A stretch of 64,000 nucleotides of DNA from Candidatus Peregrinibacteria bacterium CG2_30_44_17 (GTDB taxonomy: Bacteria; Patescibacteriota; Gracilibacteria; UBA1369; UBA12470): positions 439-64,438 of the forward strand of contig MNZJ01000012.1 of assembly GCA_001873565.1 (NCBI GenBank). The letters run 5' to 3'. Position numbers and translations under genes: made by a program. Below the pieces are notes generated by a model, which saw only the letters and a list, made by a program, of their open reading frames with translations, ran no database searches and was not told the origin of the DNA. Positions 3,541 to 32,182 of this stretch are shown here, one piece after another. Within the stretch, counting starts at the first letter, position 1, and each line of letters begins with the position of its first letter.

Positions 3541-3780
3541 ATGGCAACCAAAACAGCAATGATTCGCGCTCGCATGAAGCCGGAATTAAAAAACAAGGCA
3601 GAAACGATACTCGAAAGCCTGGGTCTCAAGCCTACAGAAGCGATAACGATGTTTTATACTCAAATTGTGCTAAAAAAAGGAGTGCCATTTAGTCTAGATC
3701 TTGAGACAGAAGATACCTCCGGCAACTATACATCTGTGAGTTCCGATGATGATCTTAAATCTTTACTTGGCTTGAACTAA
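3541..3780 (+). CDS. relB: RelB/DinJ-family type II antitoxin
   Basis: MATKTAMIRARMKPELKNKAETILESLGLKPTEAITMFYTQIVLKKGVPF matches the DinJ ribbon-helix-helix N-terminus. Its stop overlaps the toxin start (TAATG). Confidence 0.85.
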   Translation: MATKTAMIRARMKPELKNKAETILESLGLKPTEAITMFYTQIVLKKGVPFSLDLETEDTSGNYTSVSSDDDLKSLLGLN

Positions 3781-4052
3781 TGTACCAACTGCATATCCAT
3801 AAGGATGCTGAAAAAGCTTTTAAAAAAGCTCCAAAGCGCATAAGAGAAAAAGCATTTATTTGCTTAAAACATTTTAGAGATAATGGGGTCAAAGATTGTC
3901 CGTATTCTATCGATACGCTGAAAGGCAAGTTTAAGAAATTCAAATATCTCGAAGCTAAGATCGGCAAAGATTATAGGATTGTTTTTAGAATAAATGAGCA
4001 GGATATTTATATCCGATACGCAGGAACGCATAATGCGTTGGGGACAGGGTAG
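3780..4052 (+). CDS. relE: RelE/YafQ-family type II toxin (mRNA interferase)
   Basis: 90 aa and basic. The KGKFKKFKYLEAKIGKDYRIVFRINEQDIYIRYAGTHNAL C-terminus resembles YafQ/RelE. It is translationally coupled to the antitoxin. Confidence 0.8.
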   Translation: MYQLHIHKDAEKAFKKAPKRIREKAFICLKHFRDNGVKDCPYSIDTLKGKFKKFKYLEAKIGKDYRIVFRINEQDIYIRYAGTHNALGTG

Positions 4053-5676: not shown

Positions 5677-5750
5677 ATGTAAGCATTTAAAAAGTAAAAC
5701 CTGCTTCAATCAAAGCAGAAATGATGTGCGGGGGGAAGAGCGAGTGCCTG

Positions 5751-5978
5751 CTACTTCTTACCCCTGTTCTTGAAATAATAAATTAATCCGGCAGCGACAT
5801 CTATAAATACGACAAGACGAATAAGACCCTGGCCAACGAGATATCCTCTTTGTTCGCATTCGTAAGGCGTGACGCAGTCGGGAACTATAAGAGCCATACT
5901 TACCCCTAAAACAGAGGCGATAATAATCACATCGGCGAGAAGCAATTTGAGTATGAATTTTTTTAGACCGGACTTCAT
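5751..5978 (-). CDS. Small hypothetical membrane protein (2 TM)
   Basis: 75-aa ORF with two hydrophobic helices. I recognise no family. Confidence 0.4.
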   Translation of the reverse strand: MKSGLKKFILKLLLADVIIIASVLGVSMALIVPDCVTPYECEQRGYLVGQGLIRLVVFIDVAAGLIYYFKNRGKK

Positions 5979-6043
5979 AAGGTGTGATTATTTACCGAAA
6001 AACATTCTAGCAAAATGTCACTAGCTTTGGTAGTAAAAAAGTA

Positions 6044-6089
6044 TTGACGGTGAGTAAACCCTCACCTACAATGTGAGCGTATCCTCACC
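6044..6089 (+). promoter_or_regulatory. Near-consensus sigma70 promoter (TTGACG, 17 nt, TACAAT) with two GTGAG-N6-CTCAC inverted-repeat operators
   Basis: ttgacg lies at 6044-6049 and tacaat at 6067-6072. GGTGAGtaaaccCTCACC at 6049-6066 fills the spacer. tGTGAGcgtatcCTCACC at 6072-6089 covers the expected TSS. Confidence 0.55.
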
Positions 6090-6099
6090 ACCCAGTCAA

Positions 6100-6261
6100 A
6101 TGCAAACCTTCATACTTCTGTACATCGCAAAGATCGCCCTCGGCTTAATGCTTATCCCTCTATTTAGAGATTATAGGAGGAGGGAGCTTCGCCATGTGCG
6201 CGTACAAGCATGGCGAGACAGACACGGGAGTAGTAGGAGGTCGCACAGCACTTTATTCTAA
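6100..6261 (+). CDS. Possible small single-TM, Arg-rich protein between the operator-bearing promoter and lexA (the track ORF starts at GTG 6073)
   Basis: MQTFILLYIAKIALGLMLIPLFRDYRRRELRH... has one hydrophobic helix and a basic tail. There is no homology call, so it may be non-coding leader. Confidence 0.3.
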   Translation: MQTFILLYIAKIALGLMLIPLFRDYRRRELRHVRVQAWRDRHGSSRRSHSTLF

Positions 6262-6294
6262 CCCCTACCCACTATCTCGCGCGAAGCGCTCCAT

Positions 6295-6380
6295 CCCTAA
6301 ATCCTAAATCCTAAATCCTGCCATAAATAAACATTCCATTCACTAATCCCTAAATCCTAAGTCCTAAATCCTAAAAAAAC
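6295..6380 (+). repeat. Two blocks of tandem CCTAAAT heptamers (G-poor leader) immediately upstream of the lexA ATG
   Basis: ccctaaatcctaaatcctaaatcct at 6295-6319, and tccctaaatcctaagtcctaaatcctaaaaaaac at 6347-6380. Confidence 0.85.
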
Positions 6381-6995
6381 ATGCTCACCGAAAAACAATC
6401 AGCATTGCTCAAATTCATAGGCCGTTATCAAATGGAAAATGGCGCTTCACCAACTATTAAGGAGATGCGCGAACATTTTGGTGTAAGCTCCGACAATAGT
6501 ATCCTGAAACATCTCAATGCTTTGCAAGAGAAGGGTGAAATCGAGAAAGGAGATACGCCACGCAGCATCAAGATGCTAGGTAGCGTCAGGGAGATTATGG
6601 AGACGGCGAAGAATATAGTCAGCCTGCCTATCTTAAGTACGATTCCGGCAGGAGGAGCGACGATAGGAGAGCAGGAAGAGATAGGTCGAATGGAGCTGGG
6701 CAGTGACATGGTCAAGCGGCCGGATAGCTCGTTCATACTTCGCGTTACAGGGGAGAGTATGGAGGGGGCAGGAATATTTGCAGGCGATCACGTCATTGTA
6801 GGACAAGGAATCGAGCCAAAAGTAGGAGACATTGTAGTGGCTCTTGTTGACGGAGGTAGTACGCTAAAAAGTCTAGTAAAGACAGGAGGGAAATATTATC
6901 TACAGGCAGAAAATCCTGCCTATGAAGACATACATCCGCTCGAATCTCTAGAAGTTCAAGGCGTCGTGACGGGACTGATTAGGAGTTACTTATAA
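6381..6995 (+). CDS. lexA: LexA repressor (S24 autopeptidase)
   Basis: N-terminal winged HTH (SPTIKEMREHFGVSSDNSILKHLNALQEKGEI), then PILSTIPAGG, the Ser in VTGESMEGAGI and the Lys in GGSTLKSL. Confidence 0.9.
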   Translation: MLTEKQSALLKFIGRYQMENGASPTIKEMREHFGVSSDNSILKHLNALQEKGEIEKGDTPRSIKMLGSVREIMETAKNIVSLPILSTIPAGGATIGEQEEIGRMELGSDMVKRPDSSFILRVTGESMEGAGIFAGDHVIVGQGIEPKVGDIVVALVDGGSTLKSLVKTGGKYYLQAENPAYEDIHPLESLEVQGVVTGLIRSYL

Positions 6996-7307
6996 GTCCA
7001 GTAGCGGATAGACATCAATAGCAGGCTCCTCATAAGGATGAGCTGCTTTTACTTTCGAGATTATATCTGGCGCTTTGTCGCGAGGGCATATGGTTTCTAT
7101 TCTTTCTTCATCGACCTCGGTAATTTCGTGAATATTGCCAGTATGAGGACTGCTGCCATCAAGTGGGCGGAACCGTCCTACGCCTTTTGACGAGAAAGAG
7201 CACGAGTCGTAATTGCCAATGTTGCCTGCTCCGGCTTCTGCAAGAACGCTGCGTATGGAGTTCGCATAATCCGAAGGAGTGTAGATGACGATTTTTACTA
7301 GATCCAT
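6990..7307 (-). CDS. NIF3/YqfO-insert (PII-like, COG3323-type) small protein
   Basis: MDLVKIVIYTPSDYANSIRSVLAEAGAGNIGNYDSCSFSSKGVGRFRPLDGSSPHTG...HPYEEPAIDVYPL is the typical standalone NIF3-insert domain pattern. Confidence 0.6.
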   Translation of the reverse strand: MDLVKIVIYTPSDYANSIRSVLAEAGAGNIGNYDSCSFSSKGVGRFRPLDGSSPHTGNIHEITEVDEERIETICPRDKAPDIISKVKAAHPYEEPAIDVYPLLDL

Positions 7308-7340
7308 GGCGAACTTTTAGAATAATAGAGATCTCTATAA

Positions 7341-7416
7341 TGGAGCCGAGGATGGGACTTGAACCCACGACCTACGCGTTACGAGTGCGTTGCTCTACCA
7401 ACTGAGCTACCTCGGC
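7341..7416 (-). tRNA. tRNA-Thr (anticodon CGU), CCA encoded
   Basis: The reverse complement is GCCGAGGTAGCTCAGTTGGTAGAGCAACGCACTCGTAACGCGTAGGTCGTGGGTTCAAGTCCCATCCTCGGCTCCA. It folds as a cloverleaf with a 7-bp acceptor stem, GTTCAAG T-loop and CTCGTAA anticodon loop. Confidence 0.9.
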
Positions 7417-7551
7417 GAGACATACGTACTTTAAACAGCTTGAAAAAAATTCGCAATAGGGAGGCTTTCTCGCTATAATTCCACCCCTGGAGAAACGGAA
7501 GACAAATTCGCCTACACCCTACACCCTAAGTCCTAAATCCTAACCATATCC

Positions 7552-10173
7552 ATGTCCAAGAAACTGACGCCAATGATGGAGCAATATAATGAGATCAAAG
7601 CATCTCATAATGATGCCATACTGTTTTTTAGACTTGGGGATTTTTATGAAATGTTTGGAGCTGATGCAAAAGAGGCCTCGGTCATTCTTGGCATAACGCT
7701 GACGGCGAGAAACAAAGGCGAGCACAGAACACCAATGTGCGGGATACCTTATCACGCAGCAGAAAACTACGTCGCCAAACTGACAAAAGCCGGCAAAAAA
7801 GTAGCGATATGCGAACAAGTGAGCGATCCGAGTTTGCCTGGAATCGTGAAGAGGGAAGTCATCAAAATAATAACGCCCGGAACGACATTCAATGATAGTA
7901 TCCTTGATAAAAAAACCAACAATTTCGTTGCCAGTATTTTCCCTAAAGAGAACTATTTCGGTCTTGCGCTAGCTGACCTTACAACAGGAGAGTTCAAAGT
8001 AACGGAGATTAGCGGATACGGCGATCTCAAGGCGGAACTCACAAGAGTGCGGCCGTCAGAATGTGTAATCAGGCAGGATCTACTCGAGAGAGTCGACTTC
8101 AAAGAGTTCTTAGACTCCTTTGAAGATATGTATGTATTCAAGTTCGAAGACTGGAACGACCCGTACAAAACCTTGCTCGAGCATTTCAGCGTACGCAGTA
8201 TGGATGGATATGGAGTCGAAAGATGGCCTTTTGGAATGCGTGCGGCGGGGATACTGCTAAGTTATTTGAAATCGACTCAGAAGACAGACCTTAGGCATAT
8301 AACAAAAATTTCATCATACAGTACGGAGGAGACGATGCTGCTTGACGAAGCGACAATACAGAATCTCGAGATCATAGCCACTCTAAGGGAAGGGAAAAAA
8401 GACGGATCACTACTCGGCGTAATAGACGACACAATAACCTCAATGGGAGGAAGATTGCTTAAGAAATGGCTGCTTCGTCCACTGCTCAGCAAAGACGAAA
8501 TACAGAAACGTCTCGACAGCGTGGAAGAACTGGTCAAAAAACAGACAATCAAGCGCTCGCTGGAGGGTAGCCTTAAGCAAATTCTTGATTTGGAGAGATT
8601 AGTCGCCAGACTTAGTTGCGAAAGTGGGAACGCCAGAGATCTGATCGCTATCAAAACTTCACTTCAGGTCATCCCTGAGATCAAAAGGGCTCTCAAAGAC
8701 GCGAACTCAAAACTGCTCGTAAGCGCGAGGCAGAATTTGAAAGAGATAAAAAAACTTGTAGACTTAATAGAAACGGCGATACTCGATGAACCGAAAGTCA
8801 CACTCAAAGACGGAGGACTTATTAAAACAGGATTTTTCCGCGAACTCGATGAGCTCAGAAGCATAAGCAGCGAAGGAAAAAGCTTCATAACGGATTTGCA
8901 AAACAAAGAAATAAAACGAACGGGGATATCATCGCTCAAAGTGAGATACAATAGAGTGTTCGGATATTACATTGAGATCAGTAAGACGAATCTGAGTCTT
9001 GTGCCAAGCGACTACATCCGCAAGCAGACACTTGTTAACGCGGAGAGATTCATCACTCCGGAACTCAAGGAGTACGAAGAGAAAGTCTTAACCGCAGAAG
9101 ATAGAATTGTAGAACTCGAGCATAAGCTTTTTCTTGAGATAAAAAGTCAGGTCTTGGAGCATTTGGAAGGGATACAGAGCAACTCACTCATTATTGCGGA
9201 GCTCGATGTTTTGCACTCATTTGCGCAAACAGCGCTAAAGAATCGCTATACAAAACCTCTCATCAACAATAAGCAAAGGCTGGTAATCAAAAACGGACGA
9301 CATCCGGTTGTCGAACAGATGACATTCGGCAGAACATTCATACCCAACAGCACAGATTTGGATAACGAAACAAATCAATTCGTACTGCTTACAGGTCCGA
9401 ACATGAGCGGAAAATCGACCTACCTAAGACAGGTTGCGCTGATCACGCTGCTGGCACACATCGGTTCATACGTTCCCGCAGGGGAGGCTGATATATGCCT
9501 GACAGATAGGATCTTCACGAGAGTGGGAGCATCGGACAATCTGACAAAAGGGCAAAGCACTTTTATGGTGGAAATGCAGGAGACCGCAAACATAATCAAT
9601 AACGCGACACACAGAAGTCTTATCATCCTTGACGAGATAGGTCGTGGTACAAGCACATACGATGGCATGAGTCTTGCATGGTCCATTTGTGAATATGTCC
9701 ACGACAAAATCAAAGCAAAGACACTGTTCGCGACTCACTATCATGAGCTGATTGCGGTGGTTGATAGGCTGGAAAAAGGATCAAATTTCCACGTCACAGC
9801 GAAAGAAGACGCTCAAAAAGGGATAATTTTTCTCTACAAAGTTCTCGAAGGCGGAATAAGCAAAAGTTATGGGATAGAAGTTGGCAAACTCGCCGGCTTA
9901 CCTGTAGAAATCACAGAAAAAGCGATTCAGATTCTCGAAGAACTGGAAGAAGGAGTGTTGGAAAAGAGCATCAAAGAGAGACTCAAGACAGGCAAAACCC
10001 GCGTACCGGAATCGCAAATGGCCCTATTCGACAAAGCAACAAGCACTTACGCCGCTTCCCGCGAACCGGGCAAGCTAACGCATCCAGCCCTTGAAGCTTT
10101 GAAGAAGCTTGATATAAATACTATGACGCCGCTCGAAGCATTGAAAAAACTAAACGAGCTGAAAGACTTATAG
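7552..10173 (+). CDS. mutS: DNA mismatch repair protein MutS
   Basis: MMEQY...FFRLGDFYEMF N-terminus, Walker A GPNMSGKST, and ILDEIGRGTSTYDG...ATHYHEL. Confidence 0.95.
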   Translation: MSKKLTPMMEQYNEIKASHNDAILFFRLGDFYEMFGADAKEASVILGITLTARNKGEHRTPMCGIPYHAAENYVAKLTKAGKKVAICEQVSDPSLPGIVKREVIKIITPGTTFNDSILDKKTNNFVASIFPKENYFGLALADLTTGEFKVTEISGYGDLKAELTRVRPSECVIRQDLLERVDFKEFLDSFEDMYVFKFEDWNDPYKTLLEHFSVRSMDGYGVERWPFGMRAAGILLSYLKSTQKTDLRHITKISSYSTEETMLLDEATIQNLEIIATLREGKKDGSLLGVIDDTITSMGGRLLKKWLLRPLLSKDEIQKRLDSVEELVKKQTIKRSLEGSLKQILDLERLVARLSCESGNARDLIAIKTSLQVIPEIKRALKDANSKLLVSARQNLKEIKKLVDLIETAILDEPKVTLKDGGLIKTGFFRELDELRSISSEGKSFITDLQNKEIKRTGISSLKVRYNRVFGYYIEISKTNLSLVPSDYIRKQTLVNAERFITPELKEYEEKVLTAEDRIVELEHKLFLEIKSQVLEHLEGIQSNSLIIAELDVLHSFAQTALKNRYTKPLINNKQRLVIKNGRHPVVEQMTFGRTFIPNSTDLDNETNQFVLLTGPNMSGKSTYLRQVALITLLAHIGSYVPAGEADICLTDRIFTRVGASDNLTKGQSTFMVEMQETANIINNATHRSLIILDEIGRGTSTYDGMSLAWSICEYVHDKIKAKTLFATHYHELIAVVDRLEKGSNFHVTAKEDAQKGIIFLYKVLEGGISKSYGIEVGKLAGLPVEITEKAIQILEELEEGVLEKSIKERLKTGKTRVPESQMALFDKATSTYAASREPGKLTHPALEALKKLDINTMTPLEALKKLNELKDL

Positions 10174-10323
10174 AAACAAACGTTTCGCGCAGCGAAACTC
10201 CATCCCTACACCCTACACCCTATCCAAAATCAAAAACAAAAATTCCTGGAAGCACTCAACAGACGATACGTATCGGTTATTTTTGATATAGATGGAACGA
10301 TAACAGAGATTGGTGAGCAGGAC

Positions 10324-23000: not shown

Positions 23001-23277
23001 GGAATTTAGGGTTTAGATTGATGGATAACTACTACTAACTACAAACTACTAACTAACGTAGCGCTAGGGTCCCTAAAAGGGACGGTTCCACCTGGCTTCC
23101 TCCCGGAGGTCTGTTACGGGGAGGCACTTTTGTCTGTAATGATTCTGATTGCGGATGGTACTTACTCAGATTCTTGCTTGGAAGGCTTTCAGCCAAGGCC
23201 TTCTTTCTCTTTTAAGCAGATGTGCAAAGCAGCATGTTCCGCACAAAGATCGTAGTCATAAGGGGAAGCATTGTCAA

Positions 23278-32047: not shown

Positions 32048-32182
32048 TCCTAAATTGAGATTGCCAAACCAATTTGCCCATGTTAGCATCCATAAGCTAA
32101 CTCCAGATTTTTTGTCGTATACAAAAATCAACTACCAACAACTACTTACTACAAGCTACTGACTACTCACTAATCAATCCCG

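Follow-up and report, generated by a model that had tools for sequence, protein, structure and literature searches.

A palindromic motif, GTGAG-N6-CTCAC, as the probable LexA operator of an order of Candidatus Peregrinibacteria

Results

The palindrome GTGAG-N6-CTCAC, in its extended form GGTGAG-N6-CTCACC, is very probably the LexA operator of one order of Candidatus Peregrinibacteria/Peribacteria (CPR/Patescibacteria); on comparative sequence grounds, we put the probability of this reading at about 0.88. A lineage-specific LexA box had been proposed in a sequence-only reading of one stretch of the genome of Candidatus Peregrinibacteria bacterium CG2_30_44_17 (the window, that is, the whole stretch analysed, 64,000 nucleotides). 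The proposal is supported by a further copy of the palindrome at recA, by conservation at both lexA and recA, by SOS genes carrying the motif in relatives, and by the pairing of the recognition helix of LexA with the operator; from these observations, we infer the identity of the binding protein.

Twin palindromes at the promoter upstream of lexA

The promoter region and the genes behind it contain the following features, given in window coordinates.

6044–6049, + strand: −35 hexamer TTGACG, whose last G doubles as the first base of box 1
6049–6066, no strand assigned: putative SOS box 1, GGTGAG-TAAACC-CTCACC (GGTGAGtaaaccCTCACC), a perfect 6+6 inverted repeat
6067–6072, + strand: −10 hexamer TACAAT, from the sequence and a sigma-70 scan
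6072–6089, no strand assigned: putative SOS box 2, TGTGAG-CGTATC-CTCACC (tGTGAGcgtatcCTCACC), spanning the expected transcription start
6100–6261, + strand: small ORF of 53 codons plus stop (MQTFILLYIAKIALGLMLIPLFRDYRRRELRHVRVQAWRDRHGSSRRSHSTLF), first gene of the predicted boxed operon
6296–6375, + strand: G-poor leader behind the small ORF and ahead of the lexA start codon, with CCTAAAT heptamers in tandem
6381–6995, + strand: lexA, 204 aa, with Pfam domains LexA_DNA_bind (2e-13) and Peptidase_S24 (3e-25)

Box 1 fills the 17 nt that separate the −35 hexamer from the −10 hexamer, and the centres of the two boxes are 23 bp apart. In a scan with the sigma-70 consensus, the promoter at 6044–6072 matches at 10/12 positions, which is the top score within 5700–7400. 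The promoter and both palindromes had been described in the sequence-only reading, and every element is base-exact, including the 17-nt spacer fully taken up by GGTGAG-taaacc-CTCACC and the second copy over the expected transcription start, with the centre distance, estimated there at about 23 bp, measured as 23 bp. The description of the promoter as lying upstream of lexA stands insofar as lexA is downstream of it (the start codon is at a distance of about 290 nt), but the first gene behind the promoter is the small ORF at 6100–6261, and lexA is the second.

The protein encoded at 6381–6995 is, as predicted from its sequence, a canonical LexA of the cleavable type. Its whole length can be aligned to solved LexA structures (3jso and 1jhh, among others), which include those of the E. 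coli protein. The cleavage site is Ala90-Gly91 and the catalytic dyad is formed by Ser126 (in GESM) and Lys163 (in TLKS), according to our own residue count. The protein thus resembles E. coli LexA in having a winged-helix domain and a self-cleaving S24 domain with the Ala-Gly, Ser, and Lys residues. The recognition helix reads SSDNSILKH, its E. coli counterpart being RSPNAAEEH.

No terminator on the + strand and no second promoter are detected in the interval between the small ORF and lexA, the gap between the two genes is only about 10–35 nt in most relatives (by our own reading of the sequences), and the small ORF always lies between the boxed promoter and lexA; hence, the promoter with its boxes, the peptide gene, and lexA probably form one operon, whose genes would be co-transcribed. 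A non-coding RNA between the promoter and lexA was also considered as an explanation of this interval. Rfam and ARAGORN searches over the whole window yielded only tRNA-Thr at 7341–7416, and the conserved small ORF is preferred.

Generally, a Shine–Dalgarno-like sequence is seen at about 5% of long genes, and G accounts for 6–11% of bases at positions −16 to −1. Since the genome hardly uses Shine–Dalgarno sequences and its leaders are G-poor, it is not unusual here for the small ORF to lack a ribosome-binding site. Tandem heptamers poor in G (CCTAAAT, CCTACAC, ACTACTA, AACTACT) are found directly upstream of many start codons, at 6296–6375, 7511–7543, 10204–10243, 23031–23055, and 32138–32172. 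Taken together, the heptamer leaders and the rarity of Shine–Dalgarno sequences point to translation initiation that would proceed without Shine–Dalgarno pairing. Elsewhere in the window, two small ORFs that overlap each other (79 and 90 aa; 3541–4052) look like a RelB/DinJ-type antitoxin followed by a RelE/YafQ-type toxin, as judged by reading their sequences; no SOS box is found near this toxin–antitoxin-like pair.

Frequency of the motif

Boxes 1 and 2 are the sole matches to GTGAG-N6-CTCAC in the 64-kb window, even with up to one mismatch tolerated. At this level the test has low power, since at least two one-mismatch matches arise in 39/100 shuffles of the window. The whole source genome (1.17 Mb, 51 contigs, 43.8% G+C, the window being contig 2) contains five exact matches, and patterns with other spacer lengths from 0 to 14 give 0–2 matches each. 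The 18-mer GGTGAG-N6-CTCACC is observed three times, with about 0.04 occurrences expected by our own estimate from base composition. The five sites comprise the two described above, one at recA, one intergenic site before an HNH-like gene, and one inside a coding sequence; scanning the source genome with one or two mismatches reveals no convincing further site. The intragenic site, GGTGAG-AAACGC-CTCACG, is an exact copy in a glycosyltransferase-like coding sequence (contig C17, position 43122), lacks promoter context, and is probably a chance occurrence.

Across 41 related genomes, the 18-mer GGTGAG-N6-CTCACC occurs 131 times vs. once for the reversed control pattern. The 25-mer that combines the promoter and the box, TTGACGGTGAG-N6-CTCACCTA, is present in 28 of the 32 sampled same-order genomes. 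In the other orders of the class, 1 of 219 genomes has it; the control pattern has no matches.

Conservation at lexA and recA

The box upstream of recA-recX in the source genome (contig C19, position 8741) lies in the promoter TTGACG-GTGAGTGGACGCTCACC-TATACT (TTGACGGTGAGTGGACGCTCACCTATACT), an architecture identical to that of box 1 on the lexA side. It is the only other promoter-embedded site in the 1.17-Mb genome.

In same-order relatives, the exact motif is found upstream of lexA in 24/30 genomes and upstream of recA in 27/30. If not, a diverged copy is mostly seen: of 11 inspected loci lacking the exact motif, 10 have variants with one or two mismatches at the equivalent promoter position. 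Within the motif, variation over the 57 exact lexA and recA sites of relatives is limited to the six central bases, with both arms invariant throughout. The box is adjoined by TTGAC at 47 of these 57 sites, and TAnnnT follows the aligned sites. A second box at the 23-bp offset is seen at lexA in several genomes (G001, G003, G007, G015, and G032 among others). Canonical lexA itself is present in 40/41 genomes, and lexA and recA are the most consistently boxed genes. A genome scan for the motif and a comparison in relatives had been suggested along with the original proposal, and both outcomes bear it out: recA is boxed, sites at repair genes appear in relatives, and the motif with its invariant arms recurs at the frequencies given above for lexA and recA.

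Genes preceded by the motif

Boxed sites other than those at lexA and recA were taken from ten relatives, and the genes downstream were annotated. Motifs are seen upstream of genes for two Y-family polymerases (Pfam IMS); a UmuD-like Peptidase_S24 protein; a nuclease with RNase_T and GIY-YIG domains (DnaQ/GIY-YIG); RmuC and a RadA-like ATPase; a dinG-like exonuclease plus DEAD helicase; a Bro-N (DinD-like) protein; and multi-copy homologues of the HNH-like gene found in the source genome. Going by these annotations, the set is the content expected of an SOS regulon.

In the source genome the picture is sparser. Within the 64-kb window scanned with up to one mismatch, uvrA, ssb, recF, and mutS have no box, and a search of the genome finds no Y-family polymerase; hence, the SOS regulon appears to be minimal, with the peptide-lexA operon, recA-recX, and probably one HNH-like gene. 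The sequence-only reading had likewise found no motif upstream of uvrA, recF, ssb, or mutS in the window, with which our scan agrees, and had taken this as a possible sign of a different repressor; we read it instead as a sign of a very small regulon.

In two relatives from two families (locus L162 in G011 and locus L164 in G040), an ORF of 64–69 aa with a helix-hairpin-helix-like stretch, LPGIGSRTAIALGRYGVRTIGQF, lies directly behind a promoter-embedded box. These ORFs have no Pfam match; they may be remnants of the thumb of a Y-family polymerase or modules related to it.

The HNH-like family

The HNH-like gene of the source genome (273 aa, contig C22, positions 1312–2230, outside the window) has its box in the intergenic region upstream. 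In many genomes, members of this family encode proteins of 270–370 aa and have GGTGAG-N6-CTCACC 40–165 nt upstream. The boxed loci are the following.

HNH-like family, boxed loci: L151, L174, L142, L152, L169, L173, L176, L167, and L201–L206

At the N-terminus the proteins share a conserved region (...KWRRKCELLLPEI...IYEYAAKLAGMS...), and at the C-terminus a Cys/His motif of the HNH-like type. Comparison with Pfam, NCBIfam, and PDB profiles yields sub-threshold matches only (Endonuclease_7, E = 0.09; IscB HNH domain, E = 0.03), so that the HNH label derives from the Cys/His motif and not from a family match.

Boxes of this class lie outside any −35/−10 spacer; therefore, repression at these genes would have to work with another geometry. 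As an alternative, the palindrome could here belong to a mobile element: in some relatives, multi-copy HNH-like genes are preceded by a repeated element of about 250 bp that contains the palindrome. The family reaches about 15 copies each in G022 and G030, and its members are possibly selfish nuclease genes induced as part of the SOS response. Genome G022, from the same order and 97% complete, has a boxed recA and about 15 boxed HNH-like genes with near-identical spacers (TAAAAC or CAAAAC), and no lexA was found in it; lexA may be hidden in a gap of the assembly, or else the boxes are retained in its absence.

A comparable case is that of the REP13E12 genes (DUF222 and HNH) of Mycobacterium tuberculosis, which are LexA-regulated. 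Both are multi-copy families of HNH-type nucleases with SOS boxes; they differ in that the HNH-like proteins described here are below every Pfam threshold.

The small ORF between the promoter and lexA

The 53-aa peptide has one hydrophobic helix, as read from its sequence, and a strongly basic tail ending in LF. Orthologues are present in 7/7 other genomes of the same family and in 9/9 genomes of a second family; without exception they are flanked by the boxed promoter and lexA, with exact boxes at 16 of the 17 loci. Profile searches in the other families of the order yield no credible match, the lone match outside having E of about 0.01, and the ORF is thus found in 2 of 19 families. Differences between orthologues number 409, 279, and 673 at the first, second, and third codon positions, with most of them at the third; synonymous changes account for 369 of the differing codons. 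The protein is conserved, and the substitution pattern is of the coding type. Database copies are annotated only as "hypothetical protein", with no Pfam domain and no named homologue.

In an alignment of ten orthologues, the invariant residues are M1, Y8, Y25, R31, R39, and the C-terminal L-F. Most orthologues also have Gln four residues before the final Phe (QATLF, QNTLF, QKTLF, QLRLF, and similar), while the peptide of the source genome itself ends in HSTLF, with no Gln. The Q-x-x-L-F end resembles the beta-clamp-binding motif (QL[SD]LF/QxxLF), a resemblance that we regard as a lead only. The same genome offers a comparison in MutS (window 7552–10173), which has ...ESQMALFD... near its C-terminus; QMALF presumably is a pentapeptide of the sliding-clamp-binding kind.

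Small membrane proteins that are LexA-controlled and encoded beside lexA are a recurrent theme in other bacteria, and the peptide might, tentatively, be an SOS-induced checkpoint effector, either a division inhibitor in the role of SidA, YneA, or SosA or a membrane peptide of the TisB kind; we consider this a possible role, somewhat less than evenly probable. Its place as the first gene behind the boxes at 16/17 orthologous loci, the conservation of the protein with coding-type substitutions, and the combination of one hydrophobic helix with a basic tail all argue for such a function, while the lack of detectable homology to any described family and the restriction to 2/19 families argue against it, as does the positive-inside rule, which places the tail in the cytoplasm, whereas the working parts of YneA and SosA are extracellular. 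With YneA, SosA, ChiZ, and DivS, as well as with SidA of Caulobacter and TisB of E. coli, the peptide shares a small size, a single membrane helix, LexA boxes (control by LexA being presumed here), and linkage to lexA; it has no sequence similarity to any of them. The small ORF lies upstream of lexA, with which it is probably co-transcribed, whereas genes of the YneA type are divergent from lexA. Its conserved part, unlike that of YneA/SosA-type proteins, is the predicted cytoplasmic basic tail with the Q-x-x-L-F end.

A more specific and distinctly less likely version of this idea, which we offer as speculation, is that the peptide is a new SOS effector: a membrane anchor with a cytoplasmic basic tail whose clamp-binding Q-x-x-L-F would, upon DNA damage, tether the replication sliding clamp to the membrane or sequester it there.

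A different operator in the sister order

In the sister order (Peribacteria; lexA loci L068–L137), GTGAG-N6-CTCAC is absent at the lexA loci. The same two-box layout is observed there with another palindrome, TTGAC-a-GTGnAC-N4-GTnCAC-C-TAnnAT-GGTGnACG... The strict pattern, combining promoter and box, matches at lexA only, in five genomes. A looser form of the palindrome has 3–9 sites per genome vs. 1–3 control sites, which weakly supports GTGnAC-N4-GTnCAC as the candidate motif of this order. Additional palindromes (L213–L227) are seen near genes that we judge from their sequences to be rmuC-like, comM/yifB-like, and ssb-like.

The motifs of the two orders have in common the outer frame GTG-N10-CAC and the promoter architecture; the inner half-site is nAC in the sister order and AG here. 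The LexA proteins differ to match: those of the sister order are 40–45% identical to the ones described here, and their recognition helix is RSKNAVAKV vs. SSDNSILKH. That helix and operator change as a pair suggests that the binding protein is LexA; the relation is correlative and, as only two clades are compared, confounded with phylogeny. Both order motifs, like the LexA (Cheo) box of Gram-positive bacteria, CGAAC-N4-GTTCG, are palindromes of the 16-bp class, and many sites of the sister order read GTGAAC-N4-GTTCAC, which contains GAAC-N4-GTTC.

Discussion

That LexA binds the palindrome has to be weighed against two other readings. The palindrome might be bound by a different DNA-damage or stress repressor that controls lexA, recA, and repair genes. 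Some room for this is left by Bacteroidetes, in which SOS repressors other than LexA are known (PMC8565304), and by G022, with its boxes at recA and HNH-like genes and no lexA found. We nonetheless hold such a repressor to be very improbable: canonical lexA is present in 40/41 genomes and is itself, along with recA, the gene most consistently boxed; the recognition helix of LexA changes exactly where the operator changes; and LexA autoregulation classically has this layout, a palindrome of 16–18 bp present as two boxes at the lexA promoter.

Still lower is the probability that the inverted repeats work as hairpins in DNA or RNA (for instance, as a cruciform, an attenuator, or a mobile-element end) and that they occur at lexA and recA as parts of a shared promoter module. 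Both repeats are perfect, box 2 would be partly transcribed, and in some relatives the palindrome is part of the repeated element of about 250 bp before multi-copy HNH-like genes, all of which would suit a hairpin. Box 1, however, is upstream of the transcription start and hence outside the RNA, and the motif is placed at the promoters of repair and recombination genes. A hairpin would, moreover, tolerate compensatory changes in its arms; instead, the arms are invariant over the 57 exact sites and the loop is variable, which indicates sequence-specific recognition. LexA binding to the palindrome hence remains the preferred reading.

By analogy with characterised LexA systems, a LexA dimer on box 1 or box 2 would exclude RNA polymerase by steric occlusion, so that the peptide-lexA operon would be repressed by the product of its own second gene. 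RecA on single-stranded DNA would trigger self-cleavage of LexA at Ala90-Gly91 via Ser126 and Lys163; upon DNA damage, this cleavage would derepress the peptide-lexA operon, recA-recX, and the HNH-like gene, and newly made LexA would then close the regulatory loop. The occlusion, RecA-triggered cleavage, and derepression steps are all modelled on those systems.

The arrangement is similar to that of the E. coli lexA promoter, where the promoter is overlapped by two palindromic operators spaced by about two helical turns and the same operator is found at recA. The sequences are unrelated, the E. coli SOS box being CTGT-N8-ACAG; the present promoter also differs in that box 1 exactly fills the −35/−10 spacer and in that the operon begins with a membrane-peptide gene. 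The predicted regulon has about three operons, as compared with about 40 genes in E. coli.

A small LexA regulon in Patescibacteria has reportedly been reconstructed by comparative genomics by Sanchez-Osuna, Barbe and Erill in 2017. The present analysis concerns the same superphylum and takes the same approach; the proteins listed as validated there are not from Peregrinibacteria (PMC8565304, Table S2). In a later paper, the 2017 Patescibacteria SOS study is cited for a direct-repeat motif (PMC7739468). As of 2021, the validated LexA proteins of Patescibacteria comprised only one from Collierbacteria (Microgenomates) and one from Parcubacteria, both from PMID 28618189 (PMC8565304, Table S2). 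Among bacterial regulators, LexA stands out for the many changes of its binding motif, and by the count of one review 17 LexA motifs have been described (PMC8565304). GTGAG-N6-CTCAC matches none of the motifs listed there (CTGT-N8-ACAG, GAAC-N4-GTTC, GTTC-N7-GTTC, TTAC-N3-GTAA, GGTT-N10-AACC, and others). Our literature search found no paper linking LexA to Peregrinibacteria; the 2017 study itself may mention the palindrome. Within these bounds, the regulatory device is a well-known one, and the palindrome appears to be a new sequence form of it, found in an uncultured lineage.

The result would add a well-delimited new LexA motif for an uncultured CPR order, and the box would provide a computational handle on stress regulation in organisms that are not yet cultivable. 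The two orders, with the same promoter scaffold and a different palindrome and recognition helix, would form a natural pair for studying how the specificity of a repressor and its regulon changes. The source genome may also show how far an SOS regulon can shrink, namely, to lexA, recA-recX, one nuclease-like gene, and one membrane peptide. The latter is flagged as a candidate damage-checkpoint effector with no described relatives; if the tethering of the clamp were true, the effect would be a pause of replication or division in ultrasmall bacteria; in several of these, the source genome among them, no translesion polymerase is detectable.
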